Below are positions 3,763-50,597 of a stretch of DNA of 50,597 nt, one piece after another (position 1 is the stretch's first letter; the number at the start of each line of letters is the position of its first letter). Origin of the DNA: Shigella phage S2_02; sequence record OQ223306; one strand, given 5' to 3'. The notes under the pieces are model-generated. The model did not search any database. It was not told where the DNA came from and was given only the letters and a program-made list of their open reading frames with translations. The position numbers were made by a program, and so were the translations under genes.

Positions 3763-3807
3763 AATAGCACGAATTGCTAAACCTTCCGCAAGGCCATTTG
3801 ATATAGT
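3763..3807 (+). promoter_or_regulatory. Early promoter module: box AATAGCACGAATTGCTAAACC + 18 bp + TATAGT
   Basis: TATAGT 3802-3807 in hairpin AAGGCCA/TGGCCTT; predicted start about 3814 supports ATG 3848 as gene start. Confidence 0.5.
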
Positions 3808-3847
3808 GGCCTTATTGAAGCATGGCAACCAATCAGAGGAATCAGCT

Positions 3848-5214: not shown

Positions 5215-5433
5215 ATGGCTACTATCATGACAGCAGAAGATGCAGCACGCGAAGCAGTGGAAGGAATGCGCCCAAATAGCTCCAGAATCGCCCACTACTA
5301 CAAATTTGAGGTGTCGGCAGTGCAATTGGTCCATGAAATTTTAAGGCTCCCACAAGTCGATTCAGCGCGCGTGGTGACGTGCTTAAAAAATTATTTTTGC
5401 ATCACTATTAAAACGAATAGCACGAATTGCTAA
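5215..5433 (+). CDS. hypothetical protein (72 aa)
   Basis: ORF track; weak SD; C-terminus NSTNC and stop are encoded by box 5416-5436; an alternative 36-codon hydrophobic ORF 5120-5230 has a better SD. Confidence 0.4.
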   Translation: MATIMTAEDAAREAVEGMRPNSSRIAHYYKFEVSAVQLVHEILRLPQVDSARVVTCLKNYFCITIKTNSTNC

Positions 5434-5460
5434 AACTTGCTCAAGGGCATTTGTTAGAAT
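5416..5460 (+). promoter_or_regulatory. Early promoter module: box AATAGCACGAATTGCTAAAAC + 18 bp + TGtTAGAAT
   Basis: -10-like TAGAAT 5455-5460 in hairpin AAGGGCAT/ATGCCCTT; gene at 5501. Confidence 0.5.
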
Positions 5461-5500
5461 GCCCTTCGTTGAGTTAAGCAACTAATCAGAGGAATAAATC

Positions 5501-15763: not shown

Positions 15764-15775
15764 CATAAAAACACT

Positions 15776-15803
15776 TTGACGCTTTAACAAAAAGTGCTAT
15801 TAT
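15776..15803 (+). promoter_or_regulatory. Putative sigma70-type promoter for major capsid gene (TTGACG-16-TATTAT) with box copy in the spacer
   Basis: TTGACG 15776-15781, TATTAT 15798-15803; reverse-orientation box 15781-15801 fills the spacer. Confidence 0.45.
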
Positions 15804-15806
15804 TGA

Positions 15807-15836
15807 AGCCGTGAACATAATCACGGCTTTTTTATT
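15807..15836 (+). terminator. Hairpin + T-run upstream of major capsid gene
   Basis: GCCGTGA-acataa-TCACGGC followed by T6. Confidence 0.5.
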
Positions 15837-15854
15837 AACTACGGAGAAGTAATC

Positions 15855-16814
15855 ATGACTACTAAAAAATTTGATGAAGCAGATAAAAGCAATGTTGAAA
15901 TGTATCTGATCCAGGCTGGCGTAAAACAGGATGCAGCCGCAACAATGGGTATCTGGACCGCTCAGGAACTACACCGCATCAAAAGCCAATCTTACGAAGA
16001 AGACTATCCGGTAGGGTCAGCACTACGAGTATTCCCGGTTACAACCGAACTCTCTCCTACCGACAAGACGTTTGAGTACATGACCTTTGATAAGGTTGGT
16101 ACTGCTCAGATTATCGCTGACTATACCGATGACCTGCCTCTGGTTGATGCACTTGGTACTTCTGAATTTGGTAAGGTGTTCCGTTTGGGTAACGCGTATC
16201 TGATCTCAATTGATGAAATCAAAGCAGGTCAGGCAACTGGTCGCCCACTGTCAACTCGCAAGGCAAGCGCTTGTCAGTTAGCACACGACCAACTGGTTAA
16301 CCGCCTGGTGTTCAAAGGTTCTGCTCCGCACAAGATCGTGTCTGTGTTCAATCATCCGAACATCACCAAAATCACCTCGGGTAAGTGGATGAATGCAGCA
16401 ACTCCGAAGCCGGAAACTGCTGAAGCGGAATTGACTCAGGCGATCGAAACCATCGAGACGATTACACGCGGCCAGCATCGTGCAACCAACATCCTGATCC
16501 CTCCGTCCATGCGTAAGGTTCTGGCGATCCGTATGCCTGAAACTACCATGTCTTACCTGGACTATTTCAAGTCTCAGAATGCGGGTATCGAAATCGACTC
16601 CATCGCAGAGCTTGAAGATATCGACGGTGCGGGTACTAAAGGCGTGCTGGTGTACGAAAAAAATCCGATGAACATGTCCATCGAGATCCCGGAAGCATTT
16701 AACATGCTGCCAGCGCAGCCGAAAGACTTGCACTTCAAAGTGCCTTGCACCTCTAAGTGTACTGGTCTTACAATTTATCGCCCGATGACTATTGTCTTAA
16801 TTACTGGCGTGTAA
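15855..16814 (+). CDS. major capsid protein (319 aa)
   Basis: ORF track; size, position in head module, own promoter and terminator; not verified by homology. Confidence 0.65.
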   Translation: MTTKKFDEADKSNVEMYLIQAGVKQDAAATMGIWTAQELHRIKSQSYEEDYPVGSALRVFPVTTELSPTDKTFEYMTFDKVGTAQIIADYTDDLPLVDALGTSEFGKVFRLGNAYLISIDEIKAGQATGRPLSTRKASACQLAHDQLVNRLVFKGSAPHKIVSVFNHPNITKITSGKWMNAATPKPETAEAELTQAIETIETITRGQHRATNILIPPSMRKVLAIRMPETTMSYLDYFKSQNAGIEIDSIAELEDIDGAGTKGVLVYEKNPMNMSIEIPEAFNMLPAQPKDLHFKVPCTSKCTGLTIYRPMTIVLITGV

Positions 16815-19510: not shown

Positions 19511-19565
19511 CTGTAAAATCATCCTATCAACTTTATTCAATTAACTTTTAACAAAAAGTGCTATC
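19491..19565 (+). promoter_or_regulatory. Putative promoter for tail chaperone (TTGCGC-17-TAAAAT) with box copy in 5' UTR
   Basis: -35 TTGCGC 19491-19496 inside hairpin, -10 TAAAAT 19514-19519, reverse-orientation box 19545-19565 just before SD. Confidence 0.4.
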
Positions 19566-19585: not shown

Positions 19586-19903
19586 ATGGCTAAATTCAAT
19601 TTCGTGTTGGGCCAGCTTCCAGACTTCAAACTTCCGGTGACGTTCACCATGCCAAACGGCGAGGATGCGACTATTATTTTTACAGTACGCCACCTTTCCA
19701 GTAAAGAAGTGCAAGATATGTATGCAAAGCAGGGCGAAATGAATGATAGCGATTTCATCACTAAGATCGCGTCAGGCTGGAATCTGGAAGAAGAATTTAA
19801 CGAAGAGAATGCGCGTAAACTGGTGCAGTATTATCCTTCCGCAGCATACAATCTGACGGCAACTTACATCAAGGCGCTCGCCGGACACCGCGCAAAAAAC
19901 TAA
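19586..19903 (+). CDS. tail assembly chaperone (G-like) (105 aa)
   Basis: ORF track; position before tape measure; ends at TAA directly after slippery heptamer. Confidence 0.7.
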   Translation: MAKFNFVLGQLPDFKLPVTFTMPNGEDATIIFTVRHLSSKEVQDMYAKQGEMNDSDFITKIASGWNLEEEFNEENARKLVQYYPSAAYNLTATYIKALAGHRAKN

Positions 19904-29300: not shown

Positions 29301-29330
29301 AAAGGGGCCGATTGGCCCCCTTTTTTTTAA
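29301..29330. terminator. Bidirectional Rho-independent terminator
   Basis: GGGGCC-gatt-GGCCCC flanked by A3 upstream and T8 downstream; sits between convergent genes. Confidence 0.7.
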
Positions 29331-30292
29331 TACATGTTCGGAGTGAAAGGAATTGGCATTGAAATGTTTATATTGAAGGGGAATCGCGCTCCGCTTTGGG
29401 TGGAATAATTACCTACTCTTGTTCCTGGGGCGCTTCTAACGTTACCGCCGCTCATGCAAACGCCCTTGTATCGAATGTTATTATATCCACCTGTAACTCT
29501 GCATATCGTACCTGTTCTCAGTATTGGGAAAAATCCACCGCACCACTGCCAACCATCATTTATCGCCATAGTCCCGCCAAGAACGAAGGGGCGTCTAACG
29601 CTTGAGAAAACGATCTGGCCAGCAGGGTTACTCATAGTTATTCCCGGCCCAGGAGGTGGTGGGGTGTTATTAAATATTACGAGTTGAACGTATACGCTCG
29701 CGCCAACGTCATCAATCCCGTTATAGTTTGCATCCCTGCACCATATTGTATTGCCGTCAGATTCAAGTGTTACGTTTGGATTATCCCACATACCGAAAGG
29801 AACGCCCTGTACTGGCAACTGAGCCTGACCGTTAACCTGAATCCCCCCAACAAATGCAGCGCTCATCAATCTGGCGTTATTCGGTATCGCTGCGAAGTTC
29901 GTTGAATCGTTAACAAGTACCCCCTGATTTCCAGCTTGAGCGGGGAGGATTTCGTAGCAGTTTCCATAAAATCTCATCCTCCTTCCACCGTGCCCGTTAA
30001 AATTACCTACCGTTATTCGTCCGGTTGAATCATTGACCTTCTGAAAACTAGTCAAATAATACACCTCCGGGATGTAATCCATATCGTCTATGTAGATAGC
30101 CTGAGATGGAAGGCAAAAAGCGGTAGATCCTGGACTCATTTGCAGACCAAAATCAAAAACCGATCCAGATGAATCAACTCCGTCAGCCTGTATAGGTCCA
30201 CACCATGACGGGGCGCGAAGCCCTGAAGTTATCTCCATTGCCGGGCGACCGTCGTTTAGGTTTATATATATTCCTTGCCCCATAATTACCAC
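29327..30292 (-). CDS. hypothetical protein co-transcribed with cor-like gene; possible receptor-recognition / tail-fibre-associated protein (321 aa)
   Basis: ORF track; Gly/Asn/Ser-rich with PPPPGPG linker; start overlaps stop of cor-like gene; product assignment speculative. Confidence 0.45.
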   Translation of the reverse strand: MVIMGQGIYINLNDGRPAMEITSGLRAPSWCGPIQADGVDSSGSVFDFGLQMSPGSTAFCLPSQAIYIDDMDYIPEVYYLTSFQKVNDSTGRITVGNFNGHGGRRMRFYGNCYEILPAQAGNQGVLVNDSTNFAAIPNNARLMSAAFVGGIQVNGQAQLPVQGVPFGMWDNPNVTLESDGNTIWCRDANYNGIDDVGASVYVQLVIFNNTPPPPGPGITMSNPAGQIVFSSVRRPFVLGGTMAINDGWQWCGGFFPILRTGTICRVTGGYNNIRYKGVCMSGGNVRSAPGTRVGNYSTQSGARFPFNINISMPIPFTPNMY

Positions 30293-30516
30293 TCTTTAGT
30301 TTTGATTGACACTTTGCCGCTAAAGTTGCCCTGATCGTCGTCGGATGACAGACCTTTGAATCGCATATCAATTTCGCCAGCAGGAACCTTTTGACCATCA
30401 ACGAATCGCATCATGCAAGAACCGTATGCGTAAGTAACGCAGTCGCCATTTTTAAGATTCTGAGCACAACCAGTCAGGATGAATGCCGCAGCAATAATGG
30501 TGATTAACTTTTTCAT
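30286..30516 (-). CDS. cor: Cor-like outer-membrane lipoprotein (superinfection exclusion candidate) (76 aa)
   Basis: ORF track; signal peptide with lipobox LTGC; size and position next to tail-fibre genes as in T1/phi80-type phages (from memory). Confidence 0.55.
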   Translation of the reverse strand: MKKLITIIAAAFILTGCAQNLKNGDCVTYAYGSCMMRFVDGQKVPAGEIDMRFKGLSSDDDQGNFSGKVSIKTKEW

Positions 30517-32875: not shown

Positions 32876-33289
32876 ATGCATATTATCACTGGCGAGATCC
32901 GAAAAGAACCTAAGATTCTTGAACGTAATGGCGGGAATACTTATATAATCGAACTGGCAGAAAGCTACAAGCCTCGTGATGGCGATCGCGAATACACAAA
33001 CTACACATTCTTTTTTAGCGATGGTGGAAAGCCTGGTCTTGCTGACTGGTATCGTGAGGCATTCCAGGTTGGTCGCGTAGTGTCAGTATCGTGCGAGACG
33101 TTGAAGATCTCATCCCGTGAGCACAACGGAAATGTTTACAATTCATTGCAGGCTGCTGATTTTCCGAAACTGGTATTCAGTCAACGAGGTCAAGGTAATC
33201 AACAACGAGCACCGCAGCAACAACAACGAACGCAATCACAGCCACAGCCAAATCCTCAATCAACTTTCGATGATGATATCCCGTTCTAA
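32876..33289 (+). CDS. ssb: single-stranded DNA-binding protein (137 aa)
   Basis: ORF track; Gln/Pro-rich linker and acidic C-terminal tail DDDIPF typical of SSB. Confidence 0.8.
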   Translation: MHIITGEIRKEPKILERNGGNTYIIELAESYKPRDGDREYTNYTFFFSDGGKPGLADWYREAFQVGRVVSVSCETLKISSREHNGNVYNSLQAADFPKLVFSQRGQGNQQRAPQQQQRTQSQPQPNPQSTFDDDIPF

Positions 33290-33317
33290 CAAAAATCCCC
33301 GCAATGCGGGGATTTTA
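33290..33317. terminator. Bidirectional Rho-independent terminator
   Basis: AAAAATCCCCGC-aat-GCGGGGATTTT between convergent ssb and tail-fibre genes. Confidence 0.7.
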
Positions 33318-35102
33318 TCATTTGGACTTCAACATTTTTATCTCTTCTTGTAACTCTTCAACTTTCTTTATTGTATCCTGCAAAGCTCTCATAGTGTCAA
33401 GCAATAAAGGAGTTGTATCAAGCTCAAGCCTTTCAACTTTTGGCCCGTTTAGCTCGTGGCTCTCATACATCCTTCTCTTAACATATAGATTGTCGATCTC
33501 TTCTATCTCCTGAGCTATAACACCTCGCCTTACCCTTTCTTGCTCATCATCGTTAAATATAAAGTTCCTAAATCTCATTGATTTTATATTGTTGTATGCA
33601 ATGCTTGATTCATCATCCTTTATGCTGTGCTTTATATTTCTGTCAGATGCCGGAACTTGTTGGAAACTTCCAGTCTCTTGTGGTCCAGCGTAAGATATTT
33701 GCCCTGAAGCCATAAACCTGAAATGCATTTGCAGACCAATATTGCCTGCTCCATCCCTATCTTGAGTGCCTACTGATATTTGTGCTCTGGGCCATTCAGC
33801 ATTACCCGTAGTCATCATGCCAAATGCTACGCCGCCAACATACCCTTGCCCCCTTGTATCACACGATCCAGCAACAAGTGATTGATAGTTTTCAGCGCCA
33901 CTATCGGCGGTGTAAGAATTACCCTGGAAGCATGAAGCAGACCACATCTGGTTGTAACCCATAGATGTTTTCTGGCATAAAAACTGATTGGCTCTAAATC
34001 TATTGTTAGTCTCGAAGTAGTTTGCCCCTTCAGAAAATAATAAAGTCCCAGCATAACCATTATCGCTACGTTCTTTTCTGACGTAAATACCTGGCGTAGA
34101 CATTCCATCAGGTGACATAATCATCAATGATGACAATATGGACTTACTACCCCAGCTAGAACCGTCCCATGAATTCCTTCCTGCACCTATAGCGCCAGTG
34201 GTGTTAATAGTAAGAAAGTTAACAGCATCATTTTCACCTAACCCAATATTTTTTCTTGACTCTTTTTTATCCTCAAGACCAGCTAGATTGCCATCCTTAG
34301 TTAAAAGATTTTCAGCATTGATGCTGTTAGCTGCGTCTTTTGCTTCTTGAGCACTTACCGCAGCCGCATCTTTTGAGCTTACCGCATCGTCACGCGCTGC
34401 CTGAGCGTCGTTTTTTGCAGAGGTCGCTGTTTGTGCCGCTGTTTGAGCGTCATTAACGTAACCTGACAGATCGCCTTTTGCGTCATTAATTGCCTGAATC
34501 GCCGCCGCTTCTTCTGAGTCAATGTGAGTGATGGATGAATTTTCTTTTTGCTGCACATCGGTTATAGCCTGATCCTTCGCCGCATTGATGCTACCGACAG
34601 CACCGTCAACAATCTGTTGCGTCTGATTCTTGATTGAGTTAGTTTCATCGCGTGCAGCGTTGGCTGCGTCACGCGCTAATTCAGCCTGATTTTGCGCAGC
34701 TTGAGAATCAGATTTCGCCTGATTCACATCAGCAACTATTTGCTCAAGTTTATTCATATCAAGCTGATTTATCAGATCTATAGCTGCCGCGATCTCAGTC
34801 TCTTTGCTTTGATAGTATCGAAGCGTCTCAGCAACGTTTTGAGCTAATCCGTTAACAGTCAACGAATCGTTAAGCAGGATCACATACTTACCGTCAGCGG
34901 CAGTCTGACCATCCGTAGAGATAGCCTTTAACTCTGTGTCGCTAACGATATCGCTAATCACCGCCAGCTTAATTGGTTGCTCCAGGAATACGATAGTTGC
35001 ACCGACTCGAATCAGAGCAAGTTGATCTTTCCATTTTGTATCGGTTCCGTGAACCGTGCCGTCTGCATCCATTGATGCAGTGCCGCGTCTATATAAAGCC
35101 AT
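33318..35102 (-). CDS. tail fibre protein with C-terminal intramolecular-chaperone (peptidase S74-like) domain (594 aa)
   Basis: ORF track; Ala/Gln/Asp-rich repeats in N-terminal half; C-terminal segment ...SDRNIKHSIKDDESSIAYNNIKSMRFRNFIF... followed by coiled-coil tail, as in auto-cleaving fibre chaperone domains. Confidence 0.7.
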   Translation of the reverse strand: MALYRRGTASMDADGTVHGTDTKWKDQLALIRVGATIVFLEQPIKLAVISDIVSDTELKAISTDGQTAADGKYVILLNDSLTVNGLAQNVAETLRYYQSKETEIAAAIDLINQLDMNKLEQIVADVNQAKSDSQAAQNQAELARDAANAARDETNSIKNQTQQIVDGAVGSINAAKDQAITDVQQKENSSITHIDSEEAAAIQAINDAKGDLSGYVNDAQTAAQTATSAKNDAQAARDDAVSSKDAAAVSAQEAKDAANSINAENLLTKDGNLAGLEDKKESRKNIGLGENDAVNFLTINTTGAIGAGRNSWDGSSWGSKSILSSLMIMSPDGMSTPGIYVRKERSDNGYAGTLLFSEGANYFETNNRFRANQFLCQKTSMGYNQMWSASCFQGNSYTADSGAENYQSLVAGSCDTRGQGYVGGVAFGMMTTGNAEWPRAQISVGTQDRDGAGNIGLQMHFRFMASGQISYAGPQETGSFQQVPASDRNIKHSIKDDESSIAYNNIKSMRFRNFIFNDDEQERVRRGVIAQEIEEIDNLYVKRRMYESHELNGPKVERLELDTTPLLLDTMRALQDTIKKVEELQEEIKMLKSK

Positions 35103-35121
35103 AGTATAAACTCCTTAAGTA

Positions 35122-35174
35122 AATAGCACGAATTGCTAAGCACAGATTTTATCATTGTGCCACCTGCCTTGCAA
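35122..35174 (-). promoter_or_regulatory. Putative sigma70 promoter for tail-fibre gene (TTGCAA-17-TAAAAT, minus strand) with box copy at the start site
   Basis: Minus-strand -35 at 35169-35174, -10 at 35146-35151; box AATAGCACGAATTGCTAAG 35122-35140 between start site and SD AAGGAG. Confidence 0.45.
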
Positions 35175-35182
35175 TGGGCAAT

Positions 35183-35204
35183 AAAAAACCGCCCGAAGGC
35201 GGTT
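35183..35204 (-). terminator. Rho-independent terminator after primase gene (minus strand)
   Basis: AACCGCC-cgaa-GGCGGTT preceded on plus strand by A6 (U-run on minus transcript). Confidence 0.6.
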
Positions 35205-36138
35205 AGAGTAGGTCACTTGCTGAGAATAATTTGGCTTGCATTCCTGAGCGGTATCCTCCAGGATTCGGGATGATTATTTTTAATTGTCTGTCGTCTGCCA
35301 TGTATAAAGTTTCTTTATCAGATGGTTCGCACGCAACCCTTACCTCCCGCTCTCCCTTGTATCTGTACGCAACCATTTCTAGGTTTTCAGGAGTGAAGCA
35401 GGCCCACACTTCCTGTTTTGTGTGAAAGGCTATGTGCTGAGCGTCAATCCAGTTTAGACACAAGTAGATCGCCTTCTCAGTTTTACCAGTCACGGCAACC
35501 GAGCAACTTGTGTATTTCTTAGCGTAAAATGACTCCCTTCCTTCCTCGTCAATAATCAAAATATTGCAAAACTCGTCATCAAGCCCGTCCTCATGCACAA
35601 GTTGACACGGGATAGTGTGAAATACGCTCTCCCCGCCATCGTCGCGACGTTTTACGCCAACGTCGAATGATTCAGTAGGTAGCGACTCAAACATGCTTAG
35701 TGGTGTGTTTACGCGCTTCTCTGTGCGCTCCATGACTTTCATCACCGCTTCATGATCTGCCATCATGACATTGACGCCAGCTACCGGAGTCCGGCGCGCT
35801 TTCTTGTTCGCCTTGACGATATATTCCTGCGGAACTTTTCCGAGAAATCTCCCCAGGATGTTTATACATTCACTGTACGGCATACCAGTTAATTTCATTA
35901 GCCACCCGATCCCGGAGTCGTTCCCGCATGAGTTGCAGATCGCGCCGCCGTCGCCCGGAGTGTTTAAGTTATCGGTCCATCGAAAGCGGTCTTTACCGCC
36001 GCAGTTTGGGCAAGGTTGGTGCTTCTTATTAAACACCTCATTCTGCAACCCGCAGATTGATTGGAAAGCCTCGCGCCATAACCCCTTCATGTACGGCAAA
36101 ACGTCCTCTTTCTGAAACATCATAAATTCTTCGTTCAC
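35203..36138 (-). CDS. putative DNA primase (N-terminal zinc-binding domain) (311 aa)
   Basis: ORF track (GTG start with SD GGAGAT); CPNCGG...CNSCG zinc-finger-like motifs typical of phage primases. Confidence 0.6.
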   Translation of the reverse strand: MNEEFMMFQKEDVLPYMKGLWREAFQSICGLQNEVFNKKHQPCPNCGGKDRFRWTDNLNTPGDGGAICNSCGNDSGIGWLMKLTGMPYSECINILGRFLGKVPQEYIVKANKKARRTPVAGVNVMMADHEAVMKVMERTEKRVNTPLSMFESLPTESFDVGVKRRDDGGESVFHTIPCQLVHEDGLDDEFCNILIIDEEGRESFYAKKYTSCSVAVTGKTEKAIYLCLNWIDAQHIAFHTKQEVWACFTPENLEMVAYRYKGEREVRVACEPSDKETLYMADDRQLKIIIPNPGGYRSGMQAKLFSASDLL

Positions 36139-36150
36139 TTCCAGATCTCC

Positions 36151-36217
36151 AAAATAAAAAACGCGTAGAAGGATGTTAACCCGCTACGCGTCGTTTGTTT
36201 TAACTAAAAATGCTATT
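36151..36217 (-). promoter_or_regulatory. Minus-strand module: box + 18 bp + TAACAT overlapping hairpin/T-run terminator, upstream of primase
   Basis: Box (revcomp AATAGCATTTTTAGTTAAAAC) 36197-36217 contains stop of upstream gene; -10-like at 36173-36178; hairpin ACGCGTAG/CTACGCGT 36161-36191 then U-run. Confidence 0.45.
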
Positions 36218-36652
36218 GGTCGTTCCGATATCTTCCTTCTTCACGACGCGCATAAATTTCTTGTTCTTGCATCTCTTCTCTAGGCACTTGCCGTTACCGT
36301 CAAACTTGAGGTCGAATCGCAACCATGCGGCGCGGAATCCTTTACAACCCTGACGACGGTAAGCACGATGTGCAGCTTCAGCACCTTGCCACGAAATCAT
36401 GTTGCGCTCCTTCCATCCCTGCACGGTCTGATTGCTAACTTTCAGAGCCTTTGCGCAAGCCGCCGGACCACCATAATATTCAATAAGAGCATCCAATCGC
36501 GCTCTCAGTCCTGCGCGCGTTTCTTCTTTATGGATATAAAATCCGCAGCGCTGGCGAGGCTTTTTATCTTTACCGCGTCGTGTTCCGTTGTTACCATTGA
36601 TGTGACGTTTATCGATTTCACCAGTAGACTCTGCGATACGTTTCATATTCAT
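36200..36652 (-). CDS. putative helix-turn-helix DNA-binding protein (150 aa); candidate regulator
   Basis: ORF-track frame 36200..36724; ATG 36652 has SD AGGAG; basic N-terminus and HTH-like segment PAACAKALKVSNQTVQGWKER; function unverified. Confidence 0.5.
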   Translation of the reverse strand: MNMKRIAESTGEIDKRHINGNNGTRRGKDKKPRQRCGFYIHKEETRAGLRARLDALIEYYGGPAACAKALKVSNQTVQGWKERNMISWQGAEAAHRAYRRQGCKGFRAAWLRFDLKFDGNGKCLEKRCKNKKFMRVVKKEDIGTTNSIFS

Positions 36653-36663
36653 CTTAATTCTCC

Positions 36664-36732
36664 TGTAGCACTTTTTGCTAAAAACGTTTACTGTATGCCG
36701 TGTATTATATCGTAAACGATACAACGATTCAA
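36664..36732. promoter_or_regulatory. Overlapping divergent promoters: box + 18 bp + TATTAT (plus, helicase) and TTGAAT-17-TATAAT (minus, HTH gene)
   Basis: Box 36664-36684; plus -10 at 36703-36708; minus -35 at 36727-36732 and -10 at 36704-36709; box lies in 5' UTR of the minus transcript. Confidence 0.45.
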
Positions 36733-36746
36733 AGGATTAAATAGCC

Positions 36747-38765
36747 GTGACAATTAACATCAAAAAGCAAATCGCATTACTTGGCGAGGACTATATAAAA
36801 CGCACTCAAGAACGATTCACTGTCGGTGAGGTCGTTCCTTATCCGTATCAGGTTGTTGCTTATGCCGAGATCGCAAAACGCCTTTCAAATTACGAGCATC
36901 CATTCTTTGTTAAAGCGTCAGTATCTGCTGGTAAAACAATCATATTCGCTATGGTGGCAAAGCAGTGTCAAAAAATGGGATTGAAAATGCTTGTGCTTGC
37001 GAGGCAGGGTGAGATTGTCGATCAGGATAGTGAGGAGATCGATAACTTCGGGGTAACGAACTCCATCTTCTCAGCGTCGCTTGGAATCAAGTCCTGCTAC
37101 TTCCCGATCGTGGTTGGCTCTGAGGGTACTGTTGCAAATGGCCTAAACAATGAGTTGGCTGATTTTGTCCCGCATGTAATTGGGATCGACGAATGTCACC
37201 AGGTGGATTGGGAAGACCTTGCTCAAGCCATTGAAGGAAAGGAAACGATGGAGCAGATGAAGGGGGAGAAAGGGAAAGTTATTATGGACGGGGAGATTCC
37301 TCTGATTGGTAATGATGGGAAACCTTTACTTGGAACTAAGCGAAGCCAGTACACTATCGTAATCATGGAGATGATGCGTCGCTGTAAAGAGATTCACGGG
37401 CATGACCTCAGAATATTTGGCATGACAGGATCTGAATTTAGGGGCGTTGTTCCGATTCTGGTGGAGAATACAAAGGCGTTAGGATTCTGGCGTGAGCGCG
37501 TAACTGATATCGATACAAACTATCTGATTGAGTTCGGCTCTGTTGTGCCGACGATATTCGGTTCAACTGACGGAGTACACTACGATCTGGATAAGTTCAA
37601 GGCGTCAAGCGAGGACGGCGTACAGGACTTTACAGAGAAAGATATGAAGGCTATGGAAGATGAGATCCTTCATGATAAATCCCTGACTCAGCGAATCATG
37701 CAAATGGTCGCCAAAAAGGCAGAAGAACGCAATGCGGTCCTGATTACATGTGCCGGGGTGCGTCACTGTAAAGAGGCGGCGGCGGCACTTCCACCTGGAA
37801 GTACCTATGCAATTATCACTGGCGAAACAGACACCAAAACGCGCAAGAAGATTCTTGATGATGTGAGGGCCGGGAAAATTAAATACACCTTTCAGGTAAT
37901 GGCGCTCACTACTGGCGTTAACGTTCCAAATTGGGATTTCAGTGTCATACTCCGCAAGATAGGGTCGCTCACACTGTTGATTCAACTTTTGGGTAGGGGT
38001 ATGCGTCTGCTTAAACCCTGGCAGGTTGCTGAGGGAATGGTTAAGCAGGACCATCTGGTATGGGATTTCGCAGGTACGATGGATGAATTGGGTCAGCTTT
38101 ATTTCGATCCGATACTTGAGCAGGCACAATTCCAAAAGCGTTTTGAAAACGGCAAAGATCCGAAAACATGTCCGAAATGCGGTTGCGTAAATAGCTTCTA
38201 TGCTCGACGATGCGTTAACGTTATCGACGGCGAGCGCTGCGATCACTTCTGGACTTCTCAGATTTGCGAGGACCAGGTTGATGAACGTACCGGGAAAATT
38301 CTTGTTAAAGGGTGTGGTGCTGAGAATGACGTTGTGGCACGAGTCTGTCGTTGCTGTGATGTTTCTCTCGTCGATCCGAACCTGAAGTTGTCCGGTAAGG
38401 CGTACACTAAGAATGACTGGTACGAGGTCAAGAATTTTGAGGTTACGCTAACCAAAAACCAAAAGGGCGTGATATACAAATATACGCTGATTAATGATGA
38501 CGGCGATGAGTTCAAGGCGTATGAAAAATTCTTCCCTGAGTCCGACTCTAAGATTTGCGGTACGCTATGGAAAACGAAAGGTGTATTACCTCATGTGTCA
38601 GATCCTAAAATGCGTCGCTACTTTATTGGAATGAAGAACGCTATCAAGATCGTGCAATACTCGCATCATATAGCGCATCCGGTGCGCGTAACTCATCGCC
38701 GCAACCAGAAGAAAGAAGATATTATCTCACGCAAAGACTTCGGTATGGAGGATATCCCGGAATGA
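36747..38765 (+). CDS. superfamily-2 DNA helicase (DEAH-type) with C-terminal zinc-finger region (672 aa)
   Basis: ORF track (GTG start); Walker A SAGKT and motif II DECH; C-terminal Cys clusters. Confidence 0.8.
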   Translation: MTINIKKQIALLGEDYIKRTQERFTVGEVVPYPYQVVAYAEIAKRLSNYEHPFFVKASVSAGKTIIFAMVAKQCQKMGLKMLVLARQGEIVDQDSEEIDNFGVTNSIFSASLGIKSCYFPIVVGSEGTVANGLNNELADFVPHVIGIDECHQVDWEDLAQAIEGKETMEQMKGEKGKVIMDGEIPLIGNDGKPLLGTKRSQYTIVIMEMMRRCKEIHGHDLRIFGMTGSEFRGVVPILVENTKALGFWRERVTDIDTNYLIEFGSVVPTIFGSTDGVHYDLDKFKASSEDGVQDFTEKDMKAMEDEILHDKSLTQRIMQMVAKKAEERNAVLITCAGVRHCKEAAAALPPGSTYAIITGETDTKTRKKILDDVRAGKIKYTFQVMALTTGVNVPNWDFSVILRKIGSLTLLIQLLGRGMRLLKPWQVAEGMVKQDHLVWDFAGTMDELGQLYFDPILEQAQFQKRFENGKDPKTCPKCGCVNSFYARRCVNVIDGERCDHFWTSQICEDQVDERTGKILVKGCGAENDVVARVCRCCDVSLVDPNLKLSGKAYTKNDWYEVKNFEVTLTKNQKGVIYKYTLINDDGDEFKAYEKFFPESDSKICGTLWKTKGVLPHVSDPKMRRYFIGMKNAIKIVQYSHHIAHPVRVTHRRNQKKEDIISRKDFGMEDIPE

Positions 38766-39241
38766 TTGAATGGTCAAAATACCTTAAGTACAACTACGGT
38801 AATCTTTACTGGCTCGTCACTAGAAATAATAGAGTTCAAGCTGGAACGCTTGCTGGAACTATAAGTGATGAGGGTTACGTGAAAGTCATGATGCGCAAGA
38901 AGGCGTATCATGCTCATAGAATAATATGGGAGATGCACTACGGAAAAATACCCGAAGGGATGGAAGTAGACCATATAAATCACGACAGGACTGACAACAG
39001 AATAGAAAACCTTCGTCTTGTCACTAAGCAAGTTAACATGAAAAATAAATCATCATATTCAAATAACAAATCTGGCGTTACTGGAGTAAGCTGGCACTCA
39101 AAGAAAAAGAAATGGGTAGCTCAGATACAAAGCAACAAGAGGAAAAAGATGTTATATGAAGGGGATAGCTTTGATGATGCAGTGAAGGCGAGAAAGTCAG
39201 CAGAGATAGAGCTTGATTTTCATAAAAATCACGGGGTGTAA
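38762..39241 (+). CDS. HNH endonuclease with AP2-like domain (159 aa)
   Basis: ORF track; HRIIWEMHYGKIPEGMEVDHINHDRTDNRIENL HNH core; paralog of 9130 and 49475 genes. Confidence 0.8.
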   Translation: MIEWSKYLKYNYGNLYWLVTRNNRVQAGTLAGTISDEGYVKVMMRKKAYHAHRIIWEMHYGKIPEGMEVDHINHDRTDNRIENLRLVTKQVNMKNKSSYSNNKSGVTGVSWHSKKKKWVAQIQSNKRKKMLYEGDSFDDAVKARKSAEIELDFHKNHGV

Positions 39242-50470: not shown

Positions 50471-50597
50471 GGGGGGGGAATTGGTGTTACCCAGTTCACC
50501 TGGTAGTCATCTCCATTTTTAGCAAAAAGTGCTATCCATTACGATTACGCTTGATTGTGTGTTAATCCATGTATATGATTTGCCTAAATCGCAATCG
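50471..50597. repeat. Terminal direct repeat copy 2 (identical to 1-127)
   Basis: Exact match to window start; repeat may continue beyond window end. Confidence 0.9.

Follow-up and report, generated by a model that had tools for sequence, protein, structure and literature searches.

A probable lateral tail fibre with a C-terminal S74 chaperone domain, encoded in the replication module of the T1-like Shigella phage S2_02

C-terminal intramolecular chaperones have been described for the fibres T5 pb1 and DT57C LtfA (4UW8, 8HQZ chain d), in which a Ser acts together with a Lys five positions later and the chaperone is cut off after folding; these fibres bind O-antigen reversibly. For T5 pb1, the residues are Ser1264 and Lys1269, cleavage takes place between Thr1263 and Ser1264, and a folding sensor/oxyanion hole is provided upstream by Arg1250 (from the neighbouring subunit) and Asp1239 (PMC4690869). 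The founder of the Peptidase S74 family (PF13884) is the chaperone of the K1F endosialidase, whose cargo, an enzymatic tailspike, has a stalk built as a triple beta-helix, and the mechanism proposed there was carried over to T5. For Drexlerviridae, the lateral fibre locus was placed between recombination genes and primase/helicase genes in the BASEL study (PMC8594841, S1C Fig), according to which the N-terminus alone is conserved and 'likely attached to the virion', and the role of the lateral fibres is likely and 'has never been directly demonstrated'. O-antigen specificity is set in Cronobacter Drexlerviridae by a fibre that combines a coiled coil, a beta-helix, and an ICA domain (PMC12090712). 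Two residues switch this specificity in gp28 of CRES7/CRES9, where a coiled coil and a beta-rich distal part are joined to an ICA (S74) domain. These phages differ from S2_02 in host and distal domain, and LPS is the sole receptor there. In phage TLS, a 78-kDa structural protein was assigned to Gp55, for which HHpred indicates a relation to T5 pb1. For Shigella phage Sfin-1, pfam13884 has already been given for a near-identical orthologue (CDS61) of the S2_02 protein, and this orthologue was detected in virions by LC-MS/MS with 10% coverage, in a preparation that also held primase, helicase, and other non-structural proteins (PMC6714547). The cryo-EM paper on Sf11, a phage with Sf6-like tailspikes, has no bearing on the fibre gene.

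The window, i.e., the whole analysed stretch of 50,597 nt, is the genome of a Tunavirus (Drexlerviridae), a T1-like siphophage. The 594-aa minus-strand protein that had been reported between ssb and primase was recovered as an open reading frame with ATG start and TGA stop (64.5 kDa precursor; Table 1), and its identity as a tail fibre was borne out by a profile match to PHROG 1980 'tail fiber protein' (8e-100) and by the N-terminal anchor common to Drexlerviridae fibres and depolymerases. At the nucleotide level, the gene shares 96–99% identity with genes annotated as tail fibres in the Shigella phages ISF002, pSf-2, ISF001, and Sfin-1. Over its full length, the same gene with the same neighbours is found at 93–99% nucleotide identity as Shfl1p56, Sfin-1 CDS61, and the ISF002 and pSf-2 fibres; Shigella/Escherichia Tunavirus fibres differ from that of S2_02 by point substitutions only, except that 93 aa are missing within the rod of the natural 501-aa variants in FCWL1 and Eco_BIFF. 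One flank is formed by an ssb-like gene (32876-33289, plus strand; PHROG 44, 8.6e-23; C-terminal DDDIPF) and the other by a primase gene with a Zn_Ribbon_Prim match (35203-36138, minus strand), and a Cro-like regulator gene (36200-36724) lies two genes upstream of the fibre. The separation of about 4 kb from the tail genes comes to 4021 bp if counted from where the gpJ-like gene ends, and to 3026 bp if counted from the DUF6453 gene, a candidate receptor-binding gene by position. The latter (29327-30292) lies directly downstream of the gpJ-like gene and is followed by a lipoprotein gene (30286-30516).

Table 1. Features of the fibre locus of phage S2_02 (positions in the window; aa, residues of the fibre protein)
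Feature	Position	Strand	Basis or remark
Bidirectional terminator AAAAATCCCCGCAATGCGGGGATTTT	33291..33316	.	between convergent ssb and fibre genes; from sequence
Lateral tail fibre gene, stop codon included	33318..35102	-	ORF list; PHROG 1980; nucleotide identity to annotated fibres
Peptidase_S74 intramolecular chaperone domain, aa 486-594	33321..33647	-	PF13884; conserved Ser/Lys; profile vs 8hqz_d
Lys491 codon	33630-33632	-	catalytic pair with Ser486 (predicted)
Ser486 codon	33645-33647	-	predicted cleavage between Ala485 and Ser486
Gly/Ser-rich, beta-rich distal domain, presumed receptor-binding tip, exchangeable module, aa 258-485	33648..34331	-	composition, comparison
Ala/Asp/Gln/Asn-rich alpha-helical rod (presumed trimeric coiled coil), aa 83-257	34332..34856	-	composition and AF2
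N-terminal beta-rich domain, conserved virion-attachment (anchor) part, aa 1-80	34863..35102	-	homology and AF2
Ribosome-binding site AAGGAG	35111..35116	-	8 nt before ATG
Box TAGCAATTCGTGCTA, one reversed copy of the T1-family intergenic repeat	35124..35138	-	motif counts, context table
Putative sigma-70 promoter of the fibre gene: TTGCAA, 17 nt, TGaTAAAAT (extended -10)	35146..35174	-	promoter scan, 9/12 plus TG
Intrinsic terminator, AACCGCCTTCGGGCGGTT then TTTTTATT	35187..35204	-	directly after primase stop codon

The preliminary description had implied that a fibre gene inside the replication module is unusual; this did not hold, the arrangement being the standard, published Drexlerviridae layout (PMC8594841). 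Comparison with related phages placed the fibre beside ssb/recombination and primase/helicase genes in the window, T1, Shfl1, and four further lineages (Warwickvirus, Tlsvirus, Guelphvirus, and the unclassified Erwinia phage Snitter), and the order regulator-primase-fibre-ssb is common to T1, Shfl1, atuna, UTK0007, ACG-M12, SECphi27, and Snitter. Webervirus Sushi has the fibre gene after ssb, both on one strand. In T1, the fibre ST26 (YP_003919) occupies the same locus between ST27 (ssb-like) and the primase ST24, and paired plus- and minus-strand terminators are annotated at the same ssb/fibre junction.

The N-terminal part was examined by PDB search and by AlphaFold2 (AF2). Residues 1-163 match residues 1-160 of the solved siphophage depolymerases 7vyv/7lzj (E about 1e-42), and residues 1-130 share about 50-60% identity with fibres, spikes, and depolymerases of Klebsiella, Salmonella, and Erwinia Drexlerviridae; strands were predicted across aa 6-76 (pLDDT 60-79). 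The family-wide conserved anchor of Drexlerviridae lateral fibres is hence present, with 85% identity to T1 that extends up to aa 288. The Ala/Gln/Asp-rich part noted before agrees with the composition of aa 111-275 (A 22%, D 11%, Q 10%, N 10%) and is therefore correctly described, yet it is confined to about aa 83-257. This rod was modelled as essentially one long helix (helices 83-113 and 116-257, pLDDT about 70-78). Tandem Repeats Finder gave no DNA repeats in the rod-coding DNA, and in a heptad count over aa 116-257 no one register stood out clearly. The trimeric coiled coil is thus presumed, since behind it stand the predicted helix and the Cronobacter analogue, with no clean heptad register.

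The distal domain (G 14%, S 11%) is presumed to be the receptor-binding tip. Beyond aa 288, the T1 fibre is unrelated and ends in PF25670 (Phage_tail_C_2) rather than in S74, which places a module exchange breakpoint after aa 288, and the same distal module was found joined to other N-termini in P0004, P0006, and P0007; both observations agree with the variable, exchangeable distal part of a Drexlerviridae lateral fibre. Residues 376-542 share 34-35% identity with fibres of T5-like phages. A homologue search with the distal half found 9 proteins, so that no deep alignment was possible. Mean confidence was low in AF2 runs of aa 276-594 with the 9-sequence alignment (pLDDT 38.8) and of the full-length protein (pLDDT 51); these values were too poor for a fold search, and AF2 was therefore used for secondary structure and the helical rod only.

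A domain search confirmed the S74-type chaperone segment that had been proposed for the C-terminus. Pfam Peptidase_S74 (PF13884) was matched with 33.5 bits (gathering cut-off 22, E=5e-8), with aa 486-536 corresponding to profile positions 1-52. The domain forms the extreme C-terminus (486-594 of 594), right after the predicted beta-rich, Gly/Ser-rich region 258-485, and starts with the motif S486-D-R-N-I-K491, i.e., a Ser plus a Lys five residues on, as S74 requires. In the alignment with the C-terminus of DT57C LtfA, both residues fall on its Ser and Lys, and both are invariant across 8-9 homologues with identities as low as 33%, as is the pattern A-S-D-x3-K. Against the PDB, the fibre C-terminus reached the DT57C L-shaped fibre (8hqz_d) at 5.9e-21 by profile and 1e-10 by single sequence; T5 pb1 and the K1F endosialidase were not reached in either search. 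With K1F, the fibre shares the Pfam family, matched above threshold, and there was no direct sequence match to the solved K1F chains. Sequence similarity to the T5 pb1/DT57C LtfA fibres covers aa 376-594 of the S2_02 fibre; those fibres are far longer (1076-1396 aa), have another N-terminal attachment, and belong to another phage family. In the low-confidence monomer model of the S74 segment (pLDDT 30-70), helices 499-507 and 520-531, strands 541-546 and 556-561, and a helix 564-593 fit the description of T5 pb1 (helices, two strands, long terminal helix). For the region before the predicted cleavage site, no reliable alignment to T5 or K1F was obtained with respect to the folding-sensor Arg/Asp.

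Taken as a whole, the product of the gene is very probably a lateral (side) tail fibre of a T1-like siphophage with an S74 domain, for which autocleavage is predicted. Other readings were weighed against this. The N-terminal anchor is shared with solved Klebsiella Drexlerviridae proteins (7vyv, 7lzj) annotated as depolymerase/tailspike, and the S2_02 protein might likewise be an enzymatic tailspike that degrades surface polysaccharide instead of binding it passively. In those proteins, the remainder is a large capsule-degrading beta-helix enzyme, whereas similarity to the fibre stops at aa 163; only ~228 aa lie between rod and chaperone, compared with depolymerases of 907 aa, no Pfam domain other than S74 was above threshold in the fibre, and its distal part is similar to the tip regions of binding fibres from T5-like phages. 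An enzymatic function is thus quite improbable. That the protein is instead the terminal (irreversible) receptor-binding protein is suggested by tools such as PhageRBPdetect, in which the orthologous KanT1 protein scores as receptor-binding. Terminal receptor specificity in Drexlerviridae maps directly downstream of gpJ, however (PMC8594841), and this locus is present in S2_02 in the form of the DUF6453 and lipoprotein genes, so that we regard this role as very improbable.

A further reading concerns the fate of the C-terminus, namely that the S74-like segment is a retained, non-cleaving trimerisation domain and that the virion carries the full-length protein. The T5 pb1 'folding sensor' Arg/Asp, which could not be aligned with confidence in the S2_02 fibre, would be compatible with it. 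The invariance of Ser486 and Lys491 in all homologues and the position of Ser486 exactly at PF13884 profile position 1 argue against it, and we hold it to be improbable.

For the lateral fibre, the following maturation can be proposed. The 594-aa precursor would trimerise, the C-terminal 109-aa S74 chaperone would template folding of an intertwined beta-rich distal domain, and the chaperone would then cut itself off between Ala485 and Ser486 via Ser486/Lys491, so that the mature subunit would have about 485 aa (about 51.5 kDa). Once matured, the fibre would be attached to the tail tip by its N-terminal beta domain (aa 1-80); the helical rod, about 175 residues in length, would serve as a spacer, and the exchangeable distal domain would touch a surface glycan (LPS or O-antigen) first and reversibly. 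An outer-membrane protein would then be bound irreversibly by the gpJ tip and the product of the gene that directly follows gpJ. The fibre gene, located downstream of regulator and primase and convergent with exo-erf-ssb, would be transcribed from its own terminator-insulated extended -10 promoter.

A promoter of its own with a box at the start site had likewise been claimed for the fibre gene, and terminator, putative extended -10 promoter, and box were all found. The predicted terminator separates the fibre from the primase transcript and has counterparts at this site in T1, Shfl1, atuna, ACG-M12, SECphi27, and Snitter. The bare match to the promoter consensus is no better than chance (8 sites vs 6.9 expected in 4 kb). 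The fibre promoter is nearly identical in T1 and Shfl1, as are terminator and box in T1, and three other lineages (Warwickvirus, Guelphvirus, and Erwinia phage Snitter) have TGnTAnnAT in the corresponding position; the layout of terminator, TGn -10, and ribosome-binding site is kept in other genera. The fibre gene is its own terminator-promoter unit, with promoter activity predicted from these sequence features.

The box is a copy of the known 21-nt repeat of T1-like phages, described in TLS (PMC11447400). Its pattern TAGCA-N5-TGCTA occurs in 21 copies in the window (1.6 expected). Ahead of the fibre gene, the box spans about +1 to +16, from 7 nt past the -10 to 7 nt short of the ribosome-binding site; the whole 20 nt after the -10 occur once in the window, only the 15-bp core being repeated. 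A reversed box ahead of the fibre gene was also found in atuna, SECphi27, ACG-M12, and Snitter (three other lineages), and the reversed placement overlapping +1 is the one mildly new point. Forward copies of the repeat (aaATAGCACnnnTTGnTAAAA) lie exactly 22-23 nt upstream of a TATAGT-like -10 at ~18 early or middle promoters, and their centre is therefore near -42, a class-II-activator position. At the major capsid gene, a reversed copy overlaps spacer and -10. A sigma-54 promoter was considered for the box (TAGCAC-N-TTGC compared with TGGCAC-N5-TTGC) and rejected, as AG stands in place of GG and the spacing falls two bases short; a plus-strand promoter at the fibre-proximal box was rejected as well, as no -10-like hexamer is present 22-23 nt downstream on that strand.

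As a tentative and rather doubtful reading, the 21-nt repeat could be a protein-binding site used in two ways, for activation when forward and for repression when reversed at structural-gene promoters. A protein bound to the reversed box over the core promoter/start site of the fibre and major capsid genes would then repress, the box at the fibre promoter would be a switch that times fibre synthesis, and the Cro-like regulator would be a candidate binder.

The replication-module location, the modular exchange, and the S74 chaperone have all already been published for Drexlerviridae fibres. With regard to annotation, the gene is settled as a lateral tail fibre. The predicted maturation site between Ala485 and Ser486 and the domain boundaries could guide host-range engineering, e.g., a module swap after ~aa 288, and with the reversed repeat at the fibre start, the role of the T1-family repeat can be approached by concrete tests.

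The fibre gene was confirmed as a minus-strand reading frame of 594 codons from ATG to TGA, preceded by an AAGGAG ribosome-binding site 8 nt 5′ of the ATG. The product begins with MALYRRGTA and can be aligned, from its first residue onwards, to solved depolymerases of siphophages that start MALYREGKA; the start codon is therefore taken to be right. Residues 1–163 match the N-termini of PDB 7vyv and 7lzj (E-value about 1e-42), and hundreds of Drexlerviridae fibres, spikes, and depolymerases retrieved by tblastn share only this N-terminus (residues 1–130, 50–60% identity), which was proposed to be the virion-attachment part in the BASEL paper (PMC8594841). The Ala/Gln/Asp-rich part named in the preliminary description was recovered at residues 111–275 (Ala 22%, Asp 11%, Gln 10%, Asn 10%). 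Natural 501-aa variants lack 93 residues from within the predicted helical rod (see table), which argues that rod length is free to vary, as that of a spacer would be. In two such variants, the fibre proteins of FCWL1 and Eco_BIFF (P0001 and P0002), the deletion corresponds to approximately 34418–34697 of the window and lies between two similar AxxARDxA stretches, looking as if it were the product of recombination between internal near-repeats.

Features of the fibre protein (residues) and of the window (nucleotide positions)
Feature	Coordinates	Strand	Remarks
Fibre, residues	1–80		Beta strands (predicted structure)
Fibre, residues	83–257		Rod, essentially a single helix (prediction, pLDDT ~70–78)
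Fibre, residues	258–485		Gly/Ser-rich; beta-rich by prediction, low confidence
Fibre, residues	486–594		S74 domain
Forward boxes (TAGCAC-N3-TTGnTA)	1399, 2138, 2957, 3142, 3765, 5418, 6713, 36666, 40683, 42671	+	
Forward boxes (TAGCAC-N3-TTGnTA)	46302, 46802, 47317, 48433, 49046, 49463, 50313	−	
Major capsid gene	15855–16814		Promoter region 15770–15855
105-aa gene	19586–19903		Preceded by the major tail protein gene with its terminator
DUF6453 gene	29327–30292	−	321 aa; directly downstream of the gpJ-like gene, opposite strand to it
Lipoprotein gene	30286–30516	−	Small product of the Phage_lipoprotein family (76 aa), N-terminus weakly Cor-like; also directly downstream of the gpJ-like gene, opposite strand
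Fibre gene	33318–35102	−	
Box before fibre gene	35138–35124	−	Reversed
Putative fibre promoter	35174–35146	−	TTGCAA, 17 nt, TGaTAAAAT
Hairpin with T-run	35204–35187	−	Strong; immediately 3′ of the primase stop codon
Cro-like regulator gene	36200–36724		True start likely near 36650
Helicase gene	36747–38765	+	
HNH endonuclease gene	38762–39241	+	159 aa, AP2 domain; overlaps the helicase gene end

That the C-terminal segment is of the S74 type was borne out by a domain search, in which Pfam Peptidase_S74 (PF13884) matched residues 486–536 with 33.5 bits (curated cut-off, 22 bits), the match beginning at profile position 1 on Ser486. The motif reads A485-S486-D-R-N-I-K491, and Ser486 and Lys491 pair with a Ser and a Lys in the C-terminus of LtfA, the L-shaped fibre of DT57C (PDB 8hqz chain d; E-value 1.1e-10 with the single sequence, 5.9e-21 with a profile). 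Ala485, Ser486, Asp487, and Lys491 were invariant across all recovered homologues, down to 33% identity. In T5 pb1, the chain is cleaved between Thr1263 and Ser1264, with Lys1269 activating Ser1264, and the whole 133-residue domain is released after trimer folding (PMC4690869). By analogy, we infer that the fibre would undergo S74-domain cleavage, giving a mature subunit of residues 1–485 (~51.5 kDa) and a released domain of 109 aa (~13 kDa). The predicted secondary structure of the latter comprises a pair of short helices, two strands, and, at the end, a helix of 30 residues, in models too poor for fold comparison.

Comparison with related phages placed the gene among close relatives: DNA identity was 98.8% to Shigella phage vB_SsoS-ISF002, 96–97% to pSf-2, ISF001, and Sfin-3, and 92.8% to Shfl1, all Tunavirus (Tunavirinae, Drexlerviridae; T1-like siphophages). 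The fibre is 85% identical to that of T1 over residues 1–288 and unrelated over the remainder; the T1 C-terminus belongs to PF25670, not S74, whereas that of Warwickvirus atuna is S74, as here. The distal and chaperone module also occurs on different N-termini, e.g., in Escherichia phage jat, and residues 376–542 are ~35% identical to T5-like phage fibres. This pattern is ordinary fibre mosaicism. Sfin-1 CDS61 (95.7% DNA identity) was entered as a tail fibre with pfam13884 and was among 22 proteins found by LC–MS/MS of purified phage, with a coverage of only 10% and in a preparation that also held primase, helicase, and other non-structural proteins (PMC6714547). For TLS, HHpred relates Gp55 to T5 pb1 (4UW8), and Gp55 was tied to a 78-kDa virion protein (PMC11447400). 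O-antigen specificity in Drexlerviridae of Cronobacter is set by a fibre that combines a coiled coil, a beta-helix, and an ICA domain (PMC12090712); reversible O-antigen/LPS binding is the likely role according to BASEL (PMC8594841) and the KanT1 paper, both of which state that it was not shown directly for coliphage members.

[quoted passage not shown] One neighbour is an ssb-like gene (137 aa, PHROG 44, 8.6e-23) whose product ends in DDDIPF, a tail typical of SSB, and the other is a primase gene with a zinc-ribbon domain. The placement inside the replication module stands as a position, but not as a peculiarity of this genome, since the same order recurs in other Drexlerviridae: in T1, the minus-strand tail fibre gene ST26 is flanked by ST27 (ssb-like) and primase ST24, the gene order around the fibre in Shfl1 is as in the window, and the order regulator, primase, fibre, convergent ssb is also kept in Warwickvirus (atuna, SECphi27), Tlsvirus (UTK0007), Guelphvirus (ACG-M12), and Erwinia phage Snitter. 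Likewise, conserved recombination and primase/helicase genes were reported to flank the Drexlerviridae lateral tail fibre locus, conservation of the fibre gene itself being limited to its 5′ end (BASEL, PMC8594841). The Klebsiella Webervirus Sushi differs in that its fibre/depolymerase gene (L005 947–3393) shares its strand with the adjoining ssb (order exo, erf, ssb, fibre) and is not convergent with it.

Elsewhere in the genome, the DUF6453 and lipoprotein genes would by position be the receptor-binding-protein and superinfection-exclusion locus described for Drexlerviridae, unlike T1's own locus (ST32, ST31, Cor). The HNH gene is probably a homing-endonuclease insertion; T1 and Shfl1 lack any gene at this site, the T1p21 homologue coming straight after their helicase gene. 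Positions 1–127 and 50471–50597 are an exact 127-bp duplicate, and the record is therefore a complete genome of ~50.47 kb (50,470 bp unique) written with an assembly overlap, most likely of a circularly permuted genome; a 127-bp terminal repeat was likewise present in the initial assembly of Sfin-1 (PMC6714547).

In the spacer between primase and fibre genes, the hairpin is followed by the putative promoter, the box, and the ribosome-binding site. Judged on its match to the consensus alone, the putative promoter was not significant (8 sites versus 6.9 expected); the proposal that the gene has its own promoter is supported by the layout of terminator, TGn-extended −10, box, and ribosome-binding site, which is kept in Warwickvirus, Guelphvirus, and Snitter in otherwise differing sequences. 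T1 and Shfl1 carry a 100-nt spacer that is, over its entire length, nearly identical to that of the window. A bidirectional terminator at the fibre 3′ end separates the gene from the convergent ssb gene, and terminators are annotated at the same junction in T1.

The box, TAGCA-N5-TGCTA, was found 21 times in the window at up to one mismatch, versus 1.6 expected, a count reached in 0 of 100 shuffles. The motif forms the core of a 21-nt repeat reported for TLS (consensus aaATAGCACnnnTTGnTAAAA); according to the TLS authors, who count its function among the open questions, the repeat is present in T1, Rtp, and Rogue1 as well (PMC11447400). About 18 forward boxes have a TATAGT-like hexamer exactly 22–23 nt downstream, often with a preceding TGn, and this fixed spacing, which puts the box centre near −42, goes beyond the TLS paper (PMC11447400), where the repeat alone is reported. 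The spacer and −10 after the box often lie within an inverted repeat that varies by site (GGGGTA..TACCCC, AAGGCCA..TGGCCTT, AAGGGCA..TGCCCTT, CGTTTAC..GTAAACG), so that a hairpin in DNA or RNA, and not the sequence, seems to be under selection. The −10 hexamer is in or beside an inverted repeat between box and start at ~1415–1450, 2155–2190, 3780–3812, 5433–5465, and 36681–36720. At 1399, 2138, and 6713, the preceding ORF terminates at the TAG of the box. Box 36666–36680 lies in a divergent region, 22 nt upstream of a TATTAT before the helicase gene on the plus strand and, on the minus strand, in the 5′ leader of the Cro-like regulator gene beside its ribosome-binding site.

The box described at the fibre start site is indeed there: its orientation is the reverse of the gene's, and it begins 7 nt past the −10, so that it spans ~+1 to +16, with no −10-like hexamer on the opposite strand. 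A reversed box 4–12 nt past the −10 also precedes the fibre genes of atuna, SECphi27, ACG-M12, and Snitter, but not those of UTK0007 and Sushi, the latter having a terminator and a TGcTATTAT −10 upstream. Another reversed box, at 15785, overlaps the spacer and −10 of a TTGACG-16-TATTAT promoter before the major capsid gene. Between this promoter and the ribosome-binding site lies a terminator-like hairpin with T-run (GAAGCCGTGAACATAATCACGGCTTTTTT), an arrangement that might serve for attenuation or antitermination. A further reversed box (19549–19563, TAACAAAAAGTGCTA) precedes the 105-aa gene, 8 nt ahead of its ribosome-binding site.

Overall, the preliminary observation was confirmed and its interpretation supported: the fibre is a textbook case of a class already described, its position is likewise known, and near-identical genes have been annotated and published. 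The conserved reversed repeat over the fibre start site is the sole point without a match in the literature consulted, and an attractive reading of the two box orientations is that the T1-family repeat may act in a dual activator/operator role.
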